A stretch of 64,000 bases of DNA from Candidatus Acidiferrum sp. (GCA_035602395.1 DATNMH010000005.1:13009-77008), one strand, 5' to 3'. Counted from the stretch's first letter, positions 6,829 to 63,332 are shown. Numbers and translations are program-made. Notes: a model not told the origin generated them from the letters alone.

Positions 6829-7550
6829 TGTTTACCCAGAAATTCCAGGCCTGGGTGCGCCGCTGGGCGGAGCGCGGCCTCGGCATCTTCCGCGAATCCC
6901 CGATCACGCCCAACATGCTGACGCTTTTCGGCCTGCTGATCACCGGCGTCGGCGCCGGCCTGGTCGCCGTCAACCAGCTGCTCATCGGCGGCCTGGTGTT
7001 GATGGTCGCCGGCTTCTTCGACATCTTCGACGGGGCGCTCGCCCGCGCTTCGGGCAAGGTCTACCGTTACGGGGCCTTTCTCGACTCGACGGTCGACCGC
7101 TACTCGGAGGGCGTCGTCTACCTCGGCATCCTCATCTATTTCCTCCAGCAGCACGACGGATTCAGGCCCATTCTCGTCTTGATCGCAATGGCCGGATCGT
7201 TCCTGGTGAGCTACGTGCGGGCCCGCGCCCAGAGCCTCGGCTTCACCTGCGACGTGGGCATCCTCGCGCGGCCCGAGCGGGTCGTGATCATCGTCGCCGG
7301 CCTGCTGCTCGAATCGATCGGCATCAGGGTCGGGTCCTGGTCGCCCTTGACGGTGGCGCTGCTGATCCTAGCCGTCGGCACCAACTTCACCGCCGTGCAG
7401 CGCGTCTGGGTCGTCTGGCAGCAAAACCGGGCCGAGCTGCGGACCCTGCGCGGCGAGGATGCGGTCGCCAGCAGCCTCGACCATCCGGGCGAGCCCCAAC
7501 CGGTTCGGGCGGCGATGCGGCGCTTTTTCGAAAACCTCGGCAAGACCTAG
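6828..7550 (+). CDS. CDP-alcohol phosphatidyltransferase (phosphatidylinositol-phosphate synthase-like)
   Basis: ATG at 6828 overlaps the pimA-like TGA (ATGA). D-G-x2-A-R-x8-G-x3-D-x3-D motif (DIFDGALARASGKVYRYGAFLDSTVDRYSE). Multi-TM protein. Confidence 0.85.
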   Translation: MFTQKFQAWVRRWAERGLGIFRESPITPNMLTLFGLLITGVGAGLVAVNQLLIGGLVLMVAGFFDIFDGALARASGKVYRYGAFLDSTVDRYSEGVVYLGILIYFLQQHDGFRPILVLIAMAGSFLVSYVRARAQSLGFTCDVGILARPERVVIIVAGLLLESIGIRVGSWSPLTVALLILAVGTNFTAVQRVWVVWQQNRAELRTLRGEDAVASSLDHPGEPQPVRAAMRRFFENLGKT

Positions 7551-24263: not shown

Positions 24264-25700
24264 TCAGTCAATCCATATCTCGCCGCCGCGCCACTGCCGG
24301 ACCAGGCGGCCACGGCGGAGCCACAGAGCGCCGACCAGCGCCAGGGTAGCGACGACGAGGATGATCGCCGCTCCCGCAATTGGCGCCGTCGCCGACCGGG
24401 TCGATAGGACACCAGCCGCAGATATGCCGTGCGGATCATAGAGTTCCGCGCTCGCCCATGGTATTGATCGGTTGCCGAACCCTCCGGCCACGAGAACCTG
24501 ACCGTCATCGAGTACGGTTGCGGTGGCGCTTGCCCGAATCGTCGTCAGGGCACCGGCGCTTGACCACCCATTCCGACGCCAGTCGAACACCTGGGCGTTC
24601 GTTTGGCCGATTCCGCCGGCGACCAGAACGGTCCCGTCCCGAAGCTCGACCGCGATATGCTCGGCACGGCCGACGGCTGGATCGGGAATCGGCAGCCACT
24701 GGCCGCTTATAGGATCGAAGATTTCGGCTGTGCGCTCATTGACGCCGTCATCTCCGACGACGAGGACACGGCCGTCCGGGAGCGGCGTGCTGGTCGCGTT
24801 GATGCGCGCGTAGCTCATGCTGGCCGCCGGCGACCAGGACTGCGTAGCAGGATCGTAGAGTTCCGCCGTCCGGAAGTAACCGGAGAATGCGAAATAATCG
24901 GCGTTTGTGCCACCAATGACGAGCACACGGTGGTCGGCGAGCAGGATCGCAGTATGTTTCGCCCGGGCCACCGACATTGGCATCCCTACCGTCCAAGAAT
25001 TCGCGACAGGGTCATACAGCTCCGTACTCGCGAGCACTCTTCCTGTGACATCATTAGTAGCCTCGATTCCACCGACAACCAGTACGCGGCCGTCGGTCAG
25101 CAGCGTCGCGGTGTGGTACGAGCGCGGAGTGTGCATGCTCGCCGCCAGGGCCCAGCTGTTGGTCTGGGGGTCGTAGAGTTCGGCCGTCGCGAGGGACCCA
25201 AGATACATCGGCTGTATCGGTGAGCCGCCAACGACCAGCACCTTTCCGCTGTTGAGCAACGTGGCGGTATGGAGCGACCGAGCCATCCTCAGTGTGCCTG
25301 CCGGACTCCACGTCCGGGTCCGGGGATCGTAGAGTTCCGCACTCGCAAGGATGTGGTTCGACTGGCTTCCGGCGACGACAAGAACTTTGCCGTTCGGAAG
25401 CAAGGTCGCCGTATGGTAGCCGCGCCCGAAACCCATGGCCGGGACAGACGACCAGGTTCCGATCACCTGCCCAGCTGGGGACTGCGCGGTGCGGATCCAG
25501 GCGACCCCGACGCCGAGGAGGAGCATCGCGGCGACCGCCGCCGCAACCCGCAAGAAGGCGAACCGGTGACGGCCAGGAGAAGGCCGACTGACCTCGACCG
25601 CATGGAGAATTCGAGATGCGATCACCGGAGGCACAGGAATCTGTGACCGCTCGGCCTCGACGTAGCCTCGGACGCGCTCTTCAATCGTTGCCGGTCTCAT
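24264..25700 (-). CDS. anti-sigma factor with extracytoplasmic Kelch-repeat beta-propeller
   Basis: ATGA-coupled to the ECF sigma. Short cytoplasmic N-terminus, TM helix, about 6 Kelch repeats (YHTATLL..GKVLVVGG...AELYDP), C-terminal TM anchor. Confidence 0.7.
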   Translation of the reverse strand: MRPATIEERVRGYVEAERSQIPVPPVIASRILHAVEVSRPSPGRHRFAFLRVAAAVAAMLLLGVGVAWIRTAQSPAGQVIGTWSSVPAMGFGRGYHTATLLPNGKVLVVAGSQSNHILASAELYDPRTRTWSPAGTLRMARSLHTATLLNSGKVLVVGGSPIQPMYLGSLATAELYDPQTNSWALAASMHTPRSYHTATLLTDGRVLVVGGIEATNDVTGRVLASTELYDPVANSWTVGMPMSVARAKHTAILLADHRVLVIGGTNADYFAFSGYFRTAELYDPATQSWSPAASMSYARINATSTPLPDGRVLVVGDDGVNERTAEIFDPISGQWLPIPDPAVGRAEHIAVELRDGTVLVAGGIGQTNAQVFDWRRNGWSSAGALTTIRASATATVLDDGQVLVAGGFGNRSIPWASAELYDPHGISAAGVLSTRSATAPIAGAAIILVVATLALVGALWLRRGRLVRQWRGGEIWID

Positions 25701-38454: not shown

Positions 38455-39681
38455 ATGGCCGCATCAGGCAGCGTCATCGCGCTGAGGCAAAGCGAAGCGA
38501 AGGCCGCGGGCGAGCAGCTGAAGGCTGCCGTGAAACGAGTGTCGGCTACGGCTCAGGAAGCCGATGGCGCTGAGCTCGGCGAGCTGCTCATCTTGATCCG
38601 CGAGGCTGGAATCGACCCGCTGGAAGCGGCCTTCGCAACCGGCGTGCGACGGTTCGACAAATCGGGTGAATACGCCGCCGATGGCGCGTTGAACGTCACC
38701 GCCTGGCTGAAGTGGAAGTGCAAGCTGTCGGGAGGCGCCGCCGCGGAGCGGGTTGAAATCGGCAAGCAGCTGGAACGTCTGCCAAAGACGGAAGAGGCCT
38801 TCGCTCGTGGACAGCTCGGCTACCAGCATGTCGCGCTGATGGCGCGAACCGCTGAGAGCGTTGGCGCGGCCGCGGTGCGCGGCGAAGAAGGCAACCTGCT
38901 GAAATCCGCGCAGGCAATGGACCCGGGACAGTTCCTGACCGTGGTCAAGAACTTTGAACACCGTGTCGATTCCGCGGCCGCTCTCGCCGAGACGAACCGT
39001 GCCTATCAGCGCCGCTATCTCCACATAGGCGAGCCGGTAGCCGGCGCCGTACGCATCGACGGGTTGCTTGATGCCGAAGGCGGAGCAACGGTGCGGGCGG
39101 CGCTGGCCGGACTGATGAAGCCGACCAACGATGACCAGCGGAGCCACGGGCAGCGCTGTGCCGATGCCCTGGTGGAGTTCTGCCGTCGGGGACCCGGCAG
39201 CCAGCGCAAGAGCTCGGGCCCGCGACCCCAGATGATCATCCGTGCCAGCCTTGAAACCCTGGCGGGTATCGCCGGCGCTCCTGCCGGCGAGCTAGAAGGC
39301 GGTGGCACGGTGCCTGCGGAAACCGTGCAGCGTTACGCGTGCGATTCGGCGATTGTCCGGATGACCGGACGTACCGAGCTCGAGCATGAGCTCAACCACG
39401 CGACCCGCACGTTGCCGGCATCGACCCGGCGCTCGCTCGAGGCACGAGACCGCCGTTGCGTCTGGCCCGGATGCGGCCGGCCCGCAGACTGGTGCGATGG
39501 ACATCACCTGGTCTGGTGGACAAGAGGGGGTGAAACGGCACTACCGAATCTCGCCCTCATTTGCCGACCCCATCACCGACTGGTTCACGAGGGAGGCTGG
39601 TCCCTCCAACGGAAGGCGAATGTGTGGCATGCTGCGCCGCCGGACAAGATCCCGGCCAGACGCTTTGCTCGCCGCGAATGA
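38455..39681 (+). CDS. DUF222 domain-containing HNH endonuclease (REP13E12-like family)
   Basis: 408 aa. N-terminal DUF222 region. C-terminal HNH motifs (CVWPGCGRPADWCDGHHLVWW...CRPHHRLVHEGGW). Confidence 0.8.
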   Translation: MAASGSVIALRQSEAKAAGEQLKAAVKRVSATAQEADGAELGELLILIREAGIDPLEAAFATGVRRFDKSGEYAADGALNVTAWLKWKCKLSGGAAAERVEIGKQLERLPKTEEAFARGQLGYQHVALMARTAESVGAAAVRGEEGNLLKSAQAMDPGQFLTVVKNFEHRVDSAAALAETNRAYQRRYLHIGEPVAGAVRIDGLLDAEGGATVRAALAGLMKPTNDDQRSHGQRCADALVEFCRRGPGSQRKSSGPRPQMIIRASLETLAGIAGAPAGELEGGGTVPAETVQRYACDSAIVRMTGRTELEHELNHATRTLPASTRRSLEARDRRCVWPGCGRPADWCDGHHLVWWTRGGETALPNLALICRPHHRLVHEGGWSLQRKANVWHAAPPDKIPARRFARRE

Positions 39682-41763: not shown

Positions 41764-43206
41764 TCACTTGAGGATGCCGACCTTGACGTGCTGGAAGCGT
41801 GCCGGCGCGGCACCGTGCGCGACATGGGCCGTCTGCGGCGGCTGGCCTTTGCCGCAGTTGGCCAGCCCCCAGACGGACCATTCATTGCGACCGGCGACTG
41901 CGTCGCAGGAGTTCCAGAACTCGGGAGTGATGCCAGCGTAGGTCGCGTTCTTCAGCAGACGCCCCCGCTTACCGTTGACGATCTCGTAAGCGAGCTGCGT
42001 GCCGAACTGGAAGTTGAGCCGCTTGTCGTCGATGCTCCAACTCCTGTTTGTCTCCATATACACGCCATCTTTGGTTTCGGCGATCATCTGATCGAGCGAG
42101 GAGTCGCCCGGCTGCAGGTTGACGTTCGTCATCCGGATCAATGGAATGCGGTTCCAGCCATCCGCCCGCATGGTGCCGTTGCTCGGCTGGCCGAGGACAC
42201 TCGCGGTCTCCCGTGAAGTCAGGTAGCCGACGAAGAGGCCCTCTTTGATCAGGAACGATTGCTGGGCAGGCACGCCCTCATCGTCCCAGCCGAAGGTGCC
42301 GAGGCCGCTCGGGGTCAGGGCATCGGCAGTGATCGTCACCTGCGGCGAGCCGTACTGGAGGTGGTTCAGTTTCTCGGGCGTCATGAAACTTGTGCCTGCG
42401 TAGGCCGCCTCCATGCCAAACACTCGGTCCAGTTCCGTCGGATGGCCGCAGGACTCGTGGATCTGCAGTGCCGTCTGGCTGGCGTCGAGGATCAACGTCT
42501 TGACCCCGCTCGGGCATTGTGGCGCGGTCAGCAGCGCGACCGCCTCCTCACCGATACGCTGGCCGTGTCGATCGAGCTGCATCGCGGTGATGTACTCGTA
42601 GCCTCCGGAGCCCTGGTGCCTCCCGAAGGAATTCGGGTAGGAGCGGTTCTGCACCTCGTCCGGTGAGGTGGCGGTCGCCTCGATGCCCGCGCCGCTTTCG
42701 TACAGCTCCTGTTCGGTGAACGCGCCTTCGGTCGAGGCGAACACCTTCCGCTGGCGGAGGAACTCCATCGAGCCCTCGCGGATGCTGACGCCCTTGACCG
42801 CGCCCATCGCCGCATCGGCGCGCAGCAGCAGGTCGACCTTTTCGCTGAGTGGCACGCTAAACGGGTCACGTTCGAGCGGCGTCCGGTAGCGACCCCGCGA
42901 CGTGACCGCCGGCCCCAGATCGACCGGGGCGGAACGGACGCGCGCACTAGCCCGAGCGATCCGAATGGCGCGATCGACGACCTCCTCGACCTCCGCCCGC
43001 TCGAGCCGGGCGCTGCCAGCGAAGCCCCAGGCGCCGTCGACGAGGACGCGAACGCCAAACCCCTCGCTGGCATCGTCGGACACAGCGGCCAGCTGCCCGT
43101 TCTTGACGATGATGTCCTGCTGAACGTGTTCGTCGAGGCGGACGTCGGCATAGCCGGCGCCTTTCACCTGGGCCGCGTTGAGCGCGGCTTCAGCCAGATC
43201 TTTCAT
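41764..43206 (-). CDS. tldD: metalloprotease TldD
   Basis: 480 aa with an HExxxH-like motif (IHESCGHPTELD) and a conserved TldD C-terminus. Confidence 0.9.
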   Translation of the reverse strand: MKDLAEAALNAAQVKGAGYADVRLDEHVQQDIIVKNGQLAAVSDDASEGFGVRVLVDGAWGFAGSARLERAEVEEVVDRAIRIARASARVRSAPVDLGPAVTSRGRYRTPLERDPFSVPLSEKVDLLLRADAAMGAVKGVSIREGSMEFLRQRKVFASTEGAFTEQELYESGAGIEATATSPDEVQNRSYPNSFGRHQGSGGYEYITAMQLDRHGQRIGEEAVALLTAPQCPSGVKTLILDASQTALQIHESCGHPTELDRVFGMEAAYAGTSFMTPEKLNHLQYGSPQVTITADALTPSGLGTFGWDDEGVPAQQSFLIKEGLFVGYLTSRETASVLGQPSNGTMRADGWNRIPLIRMTNVNLQPGDSSLDQMIAETKDGVYMETNRSWSIDDKRLNFQFGTQLAYEIVNGKRGRLLKNATYAGITPEFWNSCDAVAGRNEWSVWGLANCGKGQPPQTAHVAHGAAPARFQHVKVGILK

Positions 43207-43229
43207 TGGACAAGACTAGCGATTGGAAT

Positions 43230-43316
43230 AGTTACACGGTGACTTGAGCGCGCCGGTTGCGCCGTCCAGCGCCGGCGCGTTAGGCGCGAAAGCGCGGCTC
43301 GCCCTGCGGGCTCGCT
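43230..43316. repeat. structured GC-rich intergenic repeat, copy A (short form)
   Basis: AGTTACACGGTGACTT-N3-CGCGCCGG-TTGCGCCGTCCAGC-GCCGGCGCG-TTAGGCGCGAAAGCGCGGCTCGCCCTGCGGGCTCGCT. The same modules recur at 52657-52805. A CGCGCCGG/CCGGCGCG stem and a GCGC-GAAA-GCGC tetraloop hairpin are present. Confidence 0.6.
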
Positions 43317-43328
43317 CAAGGGGACTCG

Positions 43329-45137
43329 TTACTGGCTGACGTACCAATCGGCGGATTGGTTCATCCACCAGAATTCGTTGCCCTTGTAGCCGCCCAGCTT
43401 CTTGGTGTAGGCCTCGACGTCGACCGCCTGGTAGAGCGGAATCTCGGGGACGACGTCGGCCAGCCGCTTCTGGGCCACGATGTACTTGTCCTTCCGGTCC
43501 GACAGCCTGACCGACAGCCGGGCCTGGTCGAGCGCCTGGTCGAGCTGCGGGTCGCTGATAAAGGTCGTGTTCTGCCCGGCGCACCCGTTGGCGTCGGTTG
43601 GGATCTGGGAGCTGTGGTAGGCGGTGTACGCCAGTGAATCGGGCTCCGCCGGGTAGCTGTAGTTGTTGGTGTACATCGCGAGATCGAAGTTGTGGCTGTA
43701 GATGATCCCGCCGCTGGTGCAAGAGCCGAACATCCGGCTCGCCGGGACGTTGGCGAACGGCTTGATGATCTGGATCCCGATCCCCGCGAGATCGGAGGCG
43801 ATCACGACCTCCTGCTCCTCGCGCAGCGGCAAGGTGGTCGTGATCAGGTGCAGCTGCACGCAACGTCCCTGCGGATCGGTGCGAAATCCCTTGCAGGGTC
43901 CGGAGGTCTGGAGCGTGTATCCCGCGTTGTTCAACAGGTCGTTGGCCGCCTTCTGATCGGTCGGCGTGTGTTTGGCGTTCGGATCCAGGCACCAGGCGCC
44001 GGTCTGGATGCACATCCAGGCGTCCGGAGGCACCACCGTCCGGCCGAGCAGCAACGTGTCCACGATCCGCTGCCGGTCGATCGCCATCAGGATCGCCTTT
44101 CGCAGGGCGACGTCCTTGAGGAAGGTGTTGTGCAGGTTGATGTCGAGGTGCTCAGCGGCACTGTCCAGGATCGTCACCGTGGTGACATCGCTCTGCCTGG
44201 AGAGCGATGGCAGCAACGACGGCCGCAGGTCCAGCGCCATGTCCACGGTGTTGGTGCGCAGATCGTTGAGCTCCGTGTTCGCGTCGGCATCGAATTTCAC
44301 CCGGATCTCGTTGAGGTAGGGGCGACCACCACCACCCCACCAGTGGGGATTTCTCACCAGCGTCAGGTGGTCCCCGGTCACCCACTCCTTGAACATGAAG
44401 GGACCCGTGCCGACCATGACCTTGTCGAGCGTGTCCGAGCCGCTGTAGCCACCTGGAATGCTGACCGTGACCTTATCGTGCGTGATATCCCCCGTCTGGG
44501 CCCAGACCTGCTGCAGCAAGTGCTCGGGGAGGACGCCGTACGGCCCGGTTCCCAGCGTCAGGTAGGCGGCGTAGACGATGTTGAAATGGATGATGGCGGT
44601 GAAGTCGTCCGGCAGATCGACGCTACCCACCTGGTCCCAGCCGCTGGTCGATATCAGTGGCGTCGGGTTCTTGTCGCGGTACTTGAGCCACCAGAAGTCG
44701 AAGGTCGCCTTGACATCCTTGGAGGTGAAGGCCACGCCGTCGTGCCACTTGACCCCGTGTCGCAATTTCCAGGTCACGTCCATCTTGTTGCCGCTGACTT
44801 TCACGTCTCCGTTTTCCAGCGTGGGGACCTCCGTGGCCAGTTCCGGAACCCAGTAATCGGACAGCTTCGGATTGGTGGGTAGCGGGTCCTGGTTGGCCTT
44901 GACGGTCAGCAGCCCTTCCATCGCCGGGTTGATGTAGGCACACGCGTGCGATGCGGCGGCTGTGATGTTGCAGGCTAGCAAGCTGTCCTGCTCCTGCCAC
45001 GAGGCAACGGTGAGCTTCCCACCCGCCTTGGGCGACGATGTTGTCGTGCTGGTCGTCGGCGCGCACGCACCCAGGACCACCGTGCCCGCGGCTGCGACCA
45101 CAAGCAGGCGCAACCAGCGCGGGCAGGTTCCTGTCAT
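43329..45137 (-). CDS. ABC transporter substrate-binding protein, family 5 (peptide/nickel type), lipoprotein
   Basis: Signal peptide with lipobox (VVLGACAPT). SBP_bac_5 fold over 602 aa. Confidence 0.85.
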   Translation of the reverse strand: MTGTCPRWLRLLVVAAAGTVVLGACAPTTSTTTSSPKAGGKLTVASWQEQDSLLACNITAAASHACAYINPAMEGLLTVKANQDPLPTNPKLSDYWVPELATEVPTLENGDVKVSGNKMDVTWKLRHGVKWHDGVAFTSKDVKATFDFWWLKYRDKNPTPLISTSGWDQVGSVDLPDDFTAIIHFNIVYAAYLTLGTGPYGVLPEHLLQQVWAQTGDITHDKVTVSIPGGYSGSDTLDKVMVGTGPFMFKEWVTGDHLTLVRNPHWWGGGGRPYLNEIRVKFDADANTELNDLRTNTVDMALDLRPSLLPSLSRQSDVTTVTILDSAAEHLDINLHNTFLKDVALRKAILMAIDRQRIVDTLLLGRTVVPPDAWMCIQTGAWCLDPNAKHTPTDQKAANDLLNNAGYTLQTSGPCKGFRTDPQGRCVQLHLITTTLPLREEQEVVIASDLAGIGIQIIKPFANVPASRMFGSCTSGGIIYSHNFDLAMYTNNYSYPAEPDSLAYTAYHSSQIPTDANGCAGQNTTFISDPQLDQALDQARLSVRLSDRKDKYIVAQKRLADVVPEIPLYQAVDVEAYTKKLGGYKGNEFWWMNQSADWYVSQ

Positions 45138-51306: not shown

Positions 51307-52638
51307 GTGGCCCCCTTACGGATGAACCCCCGGGTGGTGCGCTGGTTCACCCCCGGCCTCCACGTCAAGCGTTGGCTCGTCCTCCTGATGGTCGGGATGG
51401 TCCTGATCAGCCTCGGGATTGGCTACGCCCTGGCCAACGTCTACCGGTCGGGGATCCGGCTGCCCCCCATCTTCTACTACCTGACCTTGCAATTCATGCA
51501 CCGCTACGTCAGAGGCGCGCTCTTCGCCGCCCTCGGTCTGAGCATCATCCTGTACGCGCTGTACAAGCTCACCCAGTCGGTGCTTGGGCCCTTTCTGCCT
51601 GGCCGGGACCGAGCCCTCTCCGAGATCATCTACAACTACCGCTTCCTGCAAAAAGGCCCGCGGGTGGTCGCGTTGGGTGGCGGCACCGGACTTTCGACCC
51701 TGCTCCGCGGGCTGAAGAAGTACACCGGCAACCTGACCGCCATCGTCACGGTGGCGGACGACGGCGGGAGCTCGGGACGCCTTCGTAAGGAGTACCGGAT
51801 CCTGCCGCCCGGCGACTTCCGGCAGTGCATAACGGCGCTGGCCGACGTCGAGCCCTTGATGACGACCCTCTTCCAGCACCGCTTCAAGGAGGGCAGCCTG
51901 AACGGGCACTCCTTCGGCAACCTGTTCATCATGGCGATGGCCGAGATCACCGGCGACTTCGAGCACGCCATCCGGGAGTCCGGACGGGTTCTCGCCGTCC
52001 GCGGGCAGATCGTGCCGTCGACGCTGCGCGACGTGACGCTGATCGCCGAGATGGCCGATGGCGAGACCCGGGTCGGCGAGTCGAGCATCCCGCATGCGAA
52101 CGGGAATGGTGATGGCCACGGTGACGGTAACGGCGCAGTCGCCACCGCCACCGCCATCAAGCGGGTCTTCCTGCAACCCGAGTCGACCATCAACCCGGAA
52201 GCCGAAGAGGCGATCCTCAATGCCGAGATGATCACGGTCGGCCCGGGCAGCCTCTACACCAGCATCCTGCCCAACCTGGTCGTCGACGGAATGGCAGAGG
52301 CACTCAAAGCCTCCCCCGCGATCAAGGTCTTCATCTGCAACGTCGCCACCCAGCCGGGCGAGACCGACTTCTTCCGCGTGAGCGACCACCTGAAGGCGAT
52401 CGAGAACCACCTGGGGACGAACATCTTCGACTTCGTGGTCGTCAACAGCAACAACAACTTCCCGCTACCAACGTCAGCGCAGACCGCCGGCATCAAGCGG
52501 GTGGTGTACGACCCGGCGACGGTCAACCAGCGCAGCATCCACGCCGTCCTGGTGGACGTCGTCAACCCGCGCATCTCGACCCACCACGACCCCGACAAGC
52601 TCGCCCGCGCCATCATGAAGAAAATCTGGCGTAGCTAG
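51307..52638 (+). CDS. YvcK/CofD-family gluconeogenesis-factor-like protein with N-terminal membrane anchor
   Basis: GGGTGLSTLLRGLK motif. About 100-aa N-terminal extension with 2 TM helices. In-frame GNGDGHGDGNG low-complexity insert. Confidence 0.85.
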   Translation: MAPLRMNPRVVRWFTPGLHVKRWLVLLMVGMVLISLGIGYALANVYRSGIRLPPIFYYLTLQFMHRYVRGALFAALGLSIILYALYKLTQSVLGPFLPGRDRALSEIIYNYRFLQKGPRVVALGGGTGLSTLLRGLKKYTGNLTAIVTVADDGGSSGRLRKEYRILPPGDFRQCITALADVEPLMTTLFQHRFKEGSLNGHSFGNLFIMAMAEITGDFEHAIRESGRVLAVRGQIVPSTLRDVTLIAEMADGETRVGESSIPHANGNGDGHGDGNGAVATATAIKRVFLQPESTINPEAEEAILNAEMITVGPGSLYTSILPNLVVDGMAEALKASPAIKVFICNVATQPGETDFFRVSDHLKAIENHLGTNIFDFVVVNSNNNFPLPTSAQTAGIKRVVYDPATVNQRSIHAVLVDVVNPRISTHHDPDKLARAIMKKIWRS

Positions 52639-52656: not shown

Positions 52657-52805
52657 AGTTACACGGTGACTTACACGCGCCGATTGCGCCGTCCAGCCGC
52701 CCGCGGCGCACTCGCGCTGAAGAACGTGCGCTCGTGTGCTCGCGCGGGCGGCATGCGGCGCCGGCGCGTTACGCGCGAAAGCGCGGCTCGCCCTGCGGGC
52801 TCGCT
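52657..52805. repeat. structured GC-rich intergenic repeat, copy B (long form with 64-nt hairpin insertion)
   Basis: Same 5' and 3' modules as copy A, separated by the palindromic insert GCCGCCCGCG...CGCGGGCGGC. Its TTA (52769-52771) is used as the stop codon of the minus-strand PAP2 gene. Confidence 0.6.
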
Positions 52806-53713
52806 GTTCTGCTAACGGGGGTGGTGCGCGTGTGCCACCAGCTCGTGAAGGCGTCTTCGCCGAAGAAGACCGCCAGGGCGAAGACCATGCCGCCGATGAT
52901 GTCGACGATGTAGTGCTCGCCCAGGTAGACGATGCTGAGCCAGACACAGGCCGTATAGGCGAGCGTCGGCCACGCGCGGCGGCCCCAGAGGCGCAAGGCG
53001 AAGATCGCGCCGAGAAACGGATAGGCGGCATGGAGCGACGGCATGGCAGCGTACTGGTTGGGCGTGAGCCAGTGGTAGATGGTGGCCGGCACCGGTAGCC
53101 CGGGAATGTCCGTAAAGCTCGGCAGGGTGTGATCGATGATCTTGACCACTCCCGGCACAGCCTTCCAGGGCGGGGCGACCGGCAGCAGCAGGTAGAAGAC
53201 GAAGGCCGCGAATGACATCGCGATCAGCGCCCGCGAGAACCGCAAGAAACTCCGGCGGTCAATGATCCAGAAGAGGTACCCGAGTCCAAGCGGAAAGGCA
53301 AAGTGCAGGAAATAAAACATCGTGCCCGCGATGTCATACCAGTTCACCTGACCCGGGTGGTAGAACGCGTGCTGTAGGAGCAGGGTGGGAATCTGGCCGA
53401 AACTAATCAGCCGTTCGAGCGAGGTCACGTCGTGAATCGGCATCCCGAGCCTGCCGCCGAGTCCACGCAGGTACTCGTAGGACAGAAAGAGGACGAGAAA
53501 AGGGATCCAATCCGCGAGGAACAGCTTGGCCCGCCCGAGGATCAGGGCCGCGATCAGCATCAGGAGCAGGAAACGCTCGGGCGAAACCGACAGGTGGAGG
53601 ACGAAAACCATGAACAGGGTCACGACCACCAGGTAGCCGCCGACCAGCGATGGCAGGAGCCACGAGCGCCGGCGGGTCACGGTTGGACGCTGTGGCACGT
53701 CAGCCGGCTGCAC
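52769..53713 (-). CDS. PAP2-superfamily membrane protein (phosphatidic acid phosphatase type 2-like)
   Basis: Multi-TM protein with PAP2 motifs (PSLHAAYPF, ...). The last 13 codons and the stop come from the repeat element. Confidence 0.7.
   Translation of the reverse strand: MQPADVPQRPTVTRRRSWLLPSLVGGYLVVVTLFMVFVLHLSVSPERFLLLMLIAALILGRAKLFLADWIPFLVLFLSYEYLRGLGGRLGMPIHDVTSLERLISFGQIPTLLLQHAFYHPGQVNWYDIAGTMFYFLHFAFPLGLGYLFWIIDRRSFLRFSRALIAMSFAAFVFYLLLPVAPPWKAVPGVVKIIDHTLPSFTDIPGLPVPATIYHWLTPNQYAAMPSLHAAYPFLGAIFALRLWGRRAWPTLAYTACVWLSIVYLGEHYIVDIIGGMVFALAVFFGEDAFTSWWHTRTTPVSRTASPQGEPRFRA

Positions 53714-58017: not shown

Positions 58018-63328
<5,311 letters not shown>

Positions 63329-63332
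<4 letters not shown>

Follow-up and report, generated by a model that had tools for sequence, protein, structure and literature searches.

What is the GC-rich stretch of 87 nt that separates tldD from a family-5 solute-binding protein (SBP) gene in DNA filed under Candidatus Acidiferrum sp. (GCA_035602395.1 DATNMH010000005.1:13009-77008), and how is it related to the longer version of itself found 9.4 kb away? The whole stretch of 64,000 nt that was analyzed is referred to as the window, and the element in question occupies its positions 43230-43316. It is probably a copy, shortened by an internal deletion, of a repeat of 150-190 nt that is composite, small and interspersed; this repeat would belong to the REP/BIME, BOX or ERIC kind and be non-autonomous and largely selfish, not a host RNA gene. 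The carrier is an abundant uncultured soil lineage, the metagenome-assembled genomes (MAGs) of which are labelled Chloroflexota or Dormibacterota.

Two copies of the element are present in the window, and their parts are given below.

43230..43316, plus strand: short copy of the composite repeat, 87 nt (covariance model R1: 50.3 bits, E = 2.5e-8)
43230..43245, plus strand: 5' hairpin box AGTTAC-ACG-GTGACT(T), helix 1, with one U.G wobble that can pair on this strand alone
43249..43279, plus strand: remnant of the central hairpin, CGCGCCGG ... CCGGCGCG around TTGCGCCGTCCAG; helices 2 and 3, which covary in long copies
43284..43295, plus strand: GAAA-loop hairpin GCGC-GAAA-GCGC; loop invariant, stem covarying
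43296..43316, plus strand: terminal hairpin GGCTCG-CCC-TGC-GGG-CTCGCT, the 3' boundary of the element; covariation in 14 copies
52657..52805, plus strand: long copy, 149 nt (covariance model: 145.7 bits; fold -90.9 kcal/mol, z = -3.39)
52657-52672, plus strand: 5' box of the long copy
~52675-52769, plus strand: full central hairpin of the long copy
52772-52785, plus strand: GAAA hairpin of the long copy
52785-52805, plus strand: terminal hairpin of the long copy
52806..52817, plus strand: 3' extension GTTCTGCTAACG of the long copy, which accompanies the element in both orientations at the site between cofD and PAP2

Both copies are identical in a 5' box of 16 nt and in a 3' tail of 33 nt. With up to three mismatches allowed, the window contains two matches to the 16-mer AGTTACACGGTGACTT, compared with 0.07 in shuffled sequence (0 of 100 shuffles reach two), and the 33-mer GCGCGAAAGCGCGGCTCGCCCTGCGGGCTCGCT has two matches compared with an expectation of 0.00. 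Aligned with each other, the copies show a few base differences and a single block of ~62 nt that occurs in the long copy only. This block corresponds to the upper, apical part of the central hairpin in the predicted fold, the base of which is the pairing of CGCGCCGG with CCGGCGCG. The short copy is herein composed of the 5' box, the remnant of the central-hairpin base, the GAAA hairpin and the terminal hairpin. The sequence-only reading of this DNA had described the 87-nt stretch as two modules that recur at 52657-52805; the sequence is as it stated, and the modules do recur in the same order and the same orientation, with matches far above those in shuffles. A third copy in the 64-kb window was found neither by a repeat finder nor by nhmmer nor by the covariance model, and nhmmer and covariance models, run over the window and ~350 kb of related loci, revealed no more diverged copies in the window. 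Two copies were counted in 70.7 kb of contiguous sequence.

The architecture common to the family becomes apparent from the longer copies. Copies range from 53 to 190 nt in length, full copies from 150 to 190 nt, and they are built from modules in a fixed order, individual ones of which may be missing. Module 1 is the 5' hairpin (GCAC)AGTTAC-ACG-GTGACTT, or AGUUAC-ACG-GUGACU as RNA. Module 2, an imperfect palindrome, is a long central hairpin whose GUCCAGC internal loop is conserved; one subtype also has UUAAGAACGU as its apical loop, which is kept in four copies from different sites. Module 3 is the C-GAAA-G hairpin, whose GAAA loop is invariant, and module 4 comprises one to three GC-rich hairpins, frequently followed by CUAAGC; the last hairpin of a full copy reads GGCTCGSCC-TGC-GGSCTCGCT. 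The GAAA hairpin and the terminal hairpin together form the tail, the sole part found in every copy.

These hairpins are maintained by compensatory changes and are fully paired on one strand only. For four long copies, RNAalifold predicted 43 pairs, and compensatory double changes occur in 10 of these. Among seven long copies, 91.9% of the cells hold standard pairs compared with 82.9 ± 1.1% in shuffles, and 13 pairs (22 cells) are altered on both sides; none of 500 shuffles reached any of the observed measures. Sliding the 3' partners by 1-3 columns as a control lowered the pairing to 27-51%. The pairings that the sequence-only reading had proposed are borne out by this comparison: the helix in which CGCGCCGG and CCGGCGCG enclose the middle (helix 2) shows compensatory changes in related copies; the stem of the GCGC-GAAA-GCGC hairpin has three versions (CGCGC, CGCCC and CGGCC), in all of which the 3' strand is complementary; and the terminal GCCC-TGC-GGGC hairpin becomes GGCC-TGC-GGCC in half of the 14 copies (GCCC/GGGC, n = 7; GGCC/GGCC, n = 7; mixed, n = 0). 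The 5' box behaves likewise: in the orthologous copies of two relatives (L023 and L048) its first A is changed to G, and a G.U pair is retained. Helix cells contain 22 G.U combinations, spread over 10 columns, versus 2 A.C combinations; hence, the fold belongs to the strand that reads from 5' box to tail, which is also the strand on which the structure itself was predicted. Taken alone, the 87-nt copy folds no better than shuffled GC-rich sequence (z = -0.61), and the structural evidence therefore lies in covariation and not in folding energy.

Related copies were gathered by exact pattern scans with the 5' box in GTDB genomes and JGI metagenomes, combined with synteny walks. Two of six GTDB matches were real (L006 and L009). 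In the JGI collection, about 8-9 of 15 matched loci were real, representing 6 distinct sites, and the rest were chance or coding matches. The copies found by these scans are of the following forms.

L006: minimal copy, the 5' box directly joined to the GAAA hairpin and the terminal hairpin
L009: 5' box and CGCGCCG, then different hairpins, upstream of smc
L012 (= L014 = L019): long form
L016: long form with three tail hairpins
L023: long form
L011: long form that ends at the contig edge
L018: 5' box alone

Further copies came from synteny (L029, L032, L048 and L050). Altogether, relatives of the element occupy at least seven distinct intergenic sites in related metagenomic genomes of 83-90% DNA identity. 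The neighbors at the other sites are unrelated housekeeping genes, namely GH57 and a response regulator, DUF5658, an amidohydrolase and MFS, and an ABC ATPase and smc. The JGI metagenome collection is incomplete, omitting two JGI contigs that carry the element (L003 and L004), and copies located through synteny often have a degenerate 5' box; hence, the match counts cannot be converted into copy numbers. Both genome matches that bear the element (n = 2) are MAGs, one labelled Chloroflexi and one Candidatus Dormiibacterota. Window proteins were found identical on soil-metagenome contigs (ENA, JGI), and the glycerate kinase of the window has very many homologues at 87-100% identity in soil metagenomes. 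NCBI names on these homologues are inconsistent, comprising Chloroflexota as well as third-party-annotation (TPA) bins called 'Acidoferrum' and 'Angelobacter'. Scans of IMG/VR viral contigs yielded chance or coding matches only for the 5' box and the apical-loop motif, and no match for the tail; judged by these scans, there is no sign of a link to phages.

The history of the element can be read from orthologous sites. The same 20-kb region was fetched from six relatives (83-90% DNA identity) via their glycerate-kinase homologues, and L023 was added. Three sites, all within 10 kb, are compared below: site 1 between SBP gene and tldD, site 2 between cofD and PAP2, and site 3 between an aminotransferase gene and the glycerate kinase gene.

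Window: site 1, 87-nt copy; site 2, long copy, plus; site 3, empty
L023: site 1, 59-nt copy; site 2, long copy, plus; site 3, minimal copy, tail only
L048: site 1, 59-nt copy; site 2, inverted copy; site 3, minimal copy, tail only
L032: site 1, degenerate copy; site 2, plus, without 5' box; site 3, long copy without the canonical 5' box
L029: site 1, none; site 2, inverted copy; site 3, empty
L050: site 1, none, operon intact; site 2, plus, variant 5' box; site 3, empty
L026: site 1, none, operon intact; site 2, empty, the two genes overlapping; site 3, empty
L051: site 1, none, operon intact; site 2, empty, the two genes overlapping; site 3, empty
Site 4, between an amidohydrolase gene and an MFS gene: long copy in L011; minimal copy in L006; 5' box only, in the opposite orientation, in L018

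Thus, among genomes that are ~10-17% diverged, one and the same site may be empty, trimmed to the two ends of the element, or filled in either orientation. Deleted forms retain both ends. Site 1 allows the order of events to be determined. Four ABC-transporter genes (two permeases and two ATPases) between the SBP gene and tldD are retained in L026 (16856-20785), L050 (16911-20891) and L051 (16923-20900), the equivalent of this region in the window being 43207-43329. They were lost in the lineage of the window and in L023, L029, L032 and L048. L029 lacks the genes and also the element; its first permease codons are fused to the ATPase stop (…GCCAATCGCTAG…), and an SBP-proximal hairpin CCCTCCCCC-AGA-GGGGGAGGG is kept. 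The post-deletion junction CCAATCGCTAG just upstream of tldD is common to the window, L023, L048 and the element-free L029, which places the arrival of the site-1 element after the four-gene deletion. Following this junction, the element stands in place of ~68 nt that include a G/C hairpin in the window, L023 and L048. A hairpin of the form CCCTCCCCC-N3-6-GGGGGAGGG follows the SBP stop codon in relatives that are free of the element at site 1 (L026 16807-16855, L029 16834-16921 and L051 16868-16922); possibly this is the native terminator, displaced by the element.

The interior of the element varies independently of its location. Subtypes of the central hairpin, with apices such as UUAAGAACGU, GAAAUSACGAY, AAAAUUCCAUU and others, track neither site nor orientation. 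At the same inverted site, the copies of L029 and L048 have near-identical ends and different central hairpins, that of L048 matching the plus-oriented copy of L032; such a mosaic indicates that copies exchange segments. The 3' extension of the long copy has the counterparts TTTCTGCTAACG in L023 and CCTGCTTAGC in L029 and L048. Partial remnants of the 5' end lie directly upstream of full copies in L050 (~7445-7495, minus strand; two units of GCACACAACTAG) and in L016 (3877-3914, plus strand), where TTGACTTAACCGGGCAGTTGCGGCGC resembles the center of the site-1 copy of L032. These remnants hint at repeated insertion or recombination at the 5' end.

The genes flanking the two window copies are the following.

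41764..43206, minus strand: tldD (PF01523/PF19290/PF19289); start codon and the short copy's 5' box 24 nt apart
43329..45137, minus strand: family-5 solute-binding protein gene, SBP_bac_5 (PF00496); stop codon 12 nt from the tail of the short copy, the gene reading into the tail
51307..52638, plus strand: cofD (PF01933); stop codon 18 nt upstream of the long copy
52769..53713, minus strand: PAP2 phosphatase open reading frame (ORF), overlapping the tail of the long copy

The short copy lies, as first described, between these two minus-strand genes, with the SBP stop codon on one side and the tldD start codon on the other, and is antisense to both. The long copy is placed between the convergent cofD and PAP2. 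The last ~12 codons of the PAP2 ORF (…ASPQGEPRFRA*), including the stop codon, are the reverse complement of the tail of the long copy. PAP2 ranges from 277 to 316 residues among relatives, its length depending on what fills the cofD-PAP2 site.

Across the family, copies occupy slots just past stop codons, which are the usual places of terminator hairpins. In five of eight contexts (sites 1, 3 and 4, and site 2 in both orientations), the tail ends 0-20 nt away from where a gene reading into it has its stop codon, and in the other three (L012, L016 and L009) the 5' box begins 4-49 nt after the stop codon of the upstream gene. The foldable strand is antisense to both neighbors at the SBP-tldD, aminotransferase-glycerate kinase and amidohydrolase-MFS sites, sense at three other sites, and found in either orientation at the cofD-PAP2 site. 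A scan around the copies gave no sigma-70-like promoter consensus and no conserved upstream sequence, and a scan of both strands around either window copy gave no intrinsic terminator in the sense of a GC hairpin followed by a U-tract.

Several explanations other than a selfish repeat have to be weighed. The simplest, local duplication or chance similarity of GC-rich sequence, would suit two copies that are 9.4 kb apart without a third in the window. It does not account for homologous copies beside unrelated genes on other contigs (L006/L011, L012, L016 and L009), nor for shared modules whose chance expectation is ~0. The sequence-only reading had allowed for the case that only these two copies exist and lack compensatory changes; the family goes beyond them, and at least seven intergenic sites beside unrelated genes together with 13 compensatory pairs define a structured dispersed repeat family. 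Local duplication was therefore rejected, its probability being negligible. Host-beneficial structured RNAs, either paralogous small RNAs or cis-elements in untranslated regions (UTRs), form a weightier alternative. They would be transcribed from 5' box to tail and use the GAAA and internal loops for tertiary contacts or protein binding. The strong covariation, an invariant GAAA loop above a covarying stem, the retention of UUAAGAACGU in four copies from different sites, the predominance of G.U over A.C with its one-strand fold, and the persistence of copies at syntenic sites over 10-17% divergence all fit such an RNA. The variable orientation to genes (antisense at three sites, sense at three, both at cofD-PAP2) does not, and neither does the lack of a conserved upstream sequence, a sigma-70-like promoter or an intrinsic terminator. 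Moreover, the entire central domain is missing from several syntenic copies, and the close relatives L026 and L051 do without the element at each site. Rfam gave no match for the whole window at gathering thresholds, and in E-value mode the long copy and the L016 copy returned only microRNA, internal ribosome entry site and small-RNA matches at chance level (E ~1 or worse), all of which scored far short of the thresholds. A host-beneficial RNA is thus considered rather unlikely. A tetraloop-receptor pairing of the GAAA loop with a CUUAAG apical loop was also considered and dropped, the resemblance being loose only.

The copies might instead be host terminators or stabilizers of mRNA 3' ends, of the kind proposed for high-GC bacteria, in which the GC hairpin has no U-tract; they would have become alike through recombination or gene conversion and not by transposition. 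The closeness of the tail to the stop codon of the incoming gene in five of eight contexts suits this explanation, as do the replacement of another post-stop hairpin, CCCTCCCCC-AGA-GGGGGAGGG, by the site-1 element and the mosaic swapping of central hairpins, which suggests gene conversion. Against it stand the missing U-tract and the fact that the mRNA at those sites corresponds to the worse-pairing strand, with A.C in place of G.U. A 5' box and a long central hairpin also exceed the needs of a terminator, L026 and L051 manage the same sites without the element, and at three sites it lies in sense orientation between co-directional genes of apparent operons. This explanation is accordingly improbable. 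Even less probable is a protein-binding DNA site, in which the AGTTAC-N3-GTGACT box would either bind a dimeric regulator as its operator or be the site of a recombinase, and the GC hairpins would have no part in this. The box is indeed nearly palindromic (6+6). In L018 it stands alone, 33 nt upstream of where the MFS gene starts; in L009 it lies ~130 nt upstream of smc, and in the window 24 nt upstream of the tldD start codon. However, copies found by synteny often have a degenerate or missing box, and the tail is always there (three sites in L032; site 3 in L023 and L048; variants in L029, L048 and L050). The single mismatch of the palindrome forms a U.G pair, and a G.U pair is also retained by the A-to-G variant; this suits a single-strand hairpin better than duplex symmetry. 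Because cofD and PAP2 converge, there is also no promoter to regulate between them.

The composite small interspersed repeat remains the preferred explanation, and a number of observations weigh against it. Presence and absence may partly mean loss instead of gain, the most distant relative, L032, having all three sites filled. The invariant GAAA loop, the conserved bases of the GUCCAGC internal loop and the G.U asymmetry are also expected of a functional RNA. Copy number may be low, given 2 copies in 70.7 kb and few exact 5'-box matches in public collections. In the loci examined, no mobilizing enzyme, full-length parent element or clean target-site signature was found. The hairpins at the 5' and 3' ends are dissimilar, unlike the ends of IS200/IS605, and only about one copy in two has the GCAC flank before its 5' box.

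As for a mechanism, the repeat would be non-autonomous; tentatively, its most likely way of moving would be in the form of folded single-stranded DNA, through an HUH/Y1-type enzyme that acts in trans. This proposal draws on asymmetric ends without inverted repeats, one-strand folding, the survival of both termini upon deletion, and the very stable d(C-GAAA-G) hairpin. Hirao and colleagues are said to have found d(C-GAAA-G) to be an exceptionally stable DNA mini-hairpin. Where the repeat is co-transcribed, its hairpins would probably act only incidentally as 3'-UTR stabilizers or attenuators, and at the cofD-PAP2 site they supply the C terminus and stop codon of the neighboring ORF. A distinctly unlikely variant holds that the element is not inert: folded as single-stranded DNA or RNA, it could serve an undescribed mobilization or processing system of Dormibacterota/Chloroflexota-like soil bacteria as its cis-acting substrate, or it could be a lineage-specific class of multi-copy structured noncoding RNA. 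As such a substrate, its C-GAAA-G hairpin, GUCCAGC internal loop and 5' box could be the recognition elements.

Other repeats and possible mobile genes occur in the window. A DUF222 protein of 408 residues is encoded at 38455-39681 (plus strand), 3.5 kb from the short copy, and no link to the repeat was found. DUF222 is the HNH-endonuclease family of the mycobacterial REP13E12 repeats, and the gene could be a separate mobile gene. At 60675-63332 (minus strand) lies a DnaB replicative helicase gene with an intein that contains a LAGLIDADG homing-endonuclease domain (Pfam annotation of the matching ENA locus); the start of its longest ORF differs from the called start. Direct repeats every 156-159 nt (repeat-finder families D1 and D2) at 24264-25700 (minus strand) are located inside a Kelch/β-propeller gene and are protein-domain repeats, not noncoding ones.

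Proteobacteria, pneumococci and neisseriae are well-documented carriers of small interspersed repeats. For the uncultured and very abundant soil lineages labelled Dormibacterota or Chloroflexota, Rfam and a limited literature search yielded no such description; neither the 5'-box string nor repeats of Dormibacterota led to anything relevant. The family is tractable as an example: its modules are clear, its pairs covary, and public metagenomes contain natural alleles in which the element is present, absent or inverted. Strain typing could use it as a marker, and it poses an annotation hazard in that ORF callers read into the element, as demonstrated by the C terminus of PAP2.

Where, then, does the element belong among known repeats? 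The sequence-only reading had called it a REP/MITE-like or small-RNA-like structured element. Of this, the structured REP-like repeat family stands, as carried by at least seven sites and covariation; a small RNA is not favored in view of the varying orientation, the lack of promoter and terminator, and the dispensable central domain; and a MITE (miniature inverted-repeat transposable element) in the strict sense was rejected. Terminal inverted repeats are absent, the ends AGTTACACGG... and ...GGGCTCGCT matching at 5 of 10 positions when the 3' end is reverse-complemented, and the sole large inverted repeat is internal, within the central hairpin. Target-site duplication is not evident: filled and empty sites show no consistent direct repeat, the flanks being diverged or replaced. 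Pfam annotation of the neighboring genes revealed housekeeping genes only and no transposase near the copies. An attC-like integron site was dropped for want of an R-box consensus and in view of the housekeeping neighbors, and a CRISPR, tRNA or tmRNA relic was dropped for want of supporting features.

Palindrome-associated transposable elements (PATEs), which derive from IS200/IS605, resemble the element in having no terminal inverted repeats, in the subterminal hairpins at both ends, in strand-specific folding, and in keeping both ends in deleted derivatives; target-site duplication, which they lack, is not evident in the element. By analogy, GCAC might be a fixed 5' flank that acts as target motif; GCAC or CCAC precedes the box in L006/L011, L016, L018, L023 at site 2, L029 and L050, and not in window copy 1, window copy 2 (where it is mutated), L012 and L009. 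Similar hairpins at both ends are not found, AGTTAC-ACG-GTGACT and GCCC-TGC-GGGC (in GGCTCG...CTCGC) sharing no similarity, which speaks against a simple derivative of the IS200/IS605 type. Both IS200/IS605 ends are recognized by the same TnpA, whereas the left and right hairpins of the element differ. In the Pfam-annotated loci, no tnpA/tnpB partner was seen.

REP sequences and REPINs (PMC3116915, PMC3337134) are likewise extragenic, GC-rich imperfect palindromes that persist vertically, for which one-strand folding matters and which have no inverted terminal repeats; they also lack target-site duplications, which are not evident in the element. REPINs in particular are portrayed as long hairpins that are vertically persistent and moved by a single-copy HUH transposase, RAYT (PMC3116915, PMC3337134), and the ~90-nt central hairpin of the element, an imperfect palindrome with partly self-complementary arms, recalls them. 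Yet this hairpin is dispensable, and the non-palindromic ends persist. The element differs in these extra end modules (5' box, GAAA hairpin and terminal hairpin) and looks far rarer than REPs, which typically number hundreds per genome. No RAYT gene was found in the ~190 kb examined, and the GTAG/CTAC tetranucleotide of the REP head was not seen in the window copies, which were read by eye with no dedicated search.

ERIC (enterobacterial repetitive intergenic consensus), a repeat of 127 bp, shares with the element a single long imperfect palindrome, a location in transcribed intergenic regions and occurrence in either orientation (family named in PMC3049150). Its sequence is unrelated, and it is confined to Enterobacteriaceae and Vibrionaceae; the ends of the element are, unlike those of ERIC, asymmetric and accompanied by accessory 3' hairpins. 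Shorter forms with an internal deletion and longer forms with an internal insertion, each at defined internal positions and comparable to the length variants of the element, have reportedly been described for ERIC by Hulton (1991) and by Wilson & Sharp (2006).

The closest correspondence is with the composite small interspersed repeats BOX, BIME and NIME, which are <200 bp long, modular, highly base-paired, parasitic and rarely transposing, and which alter neighboring ORFs (PMC3049150). Copies of 53-190 nt at a minimum of seven sites, with a fixed module order and variable modules, correspond to this definition (PMC3049150). Like BOX of Streptococcus pneumoniae (boxA-boxB(n)-boxC), BIME and NIME, the element is <200 bp, intergenic, modular and heavily base-paired, and it shares with BOX and the composite repeats conserved end modules with a variable or absent middle, presence and absence at a low rate, and the extension or alteration of neighboring ORFs (PMC3049150). 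BOX differs by its host phylum and by IS-like (ISSpn2) terminal inverted repeats, which the element does not have, and no sequence relationship is claimed. The variable part of the element is one long hairpin with variable 3' hairpins in place of a tandem boxB array. The family, previously uncatalogued, thus adds an unfamiliar host to a well-known kind of bacterial repeat.

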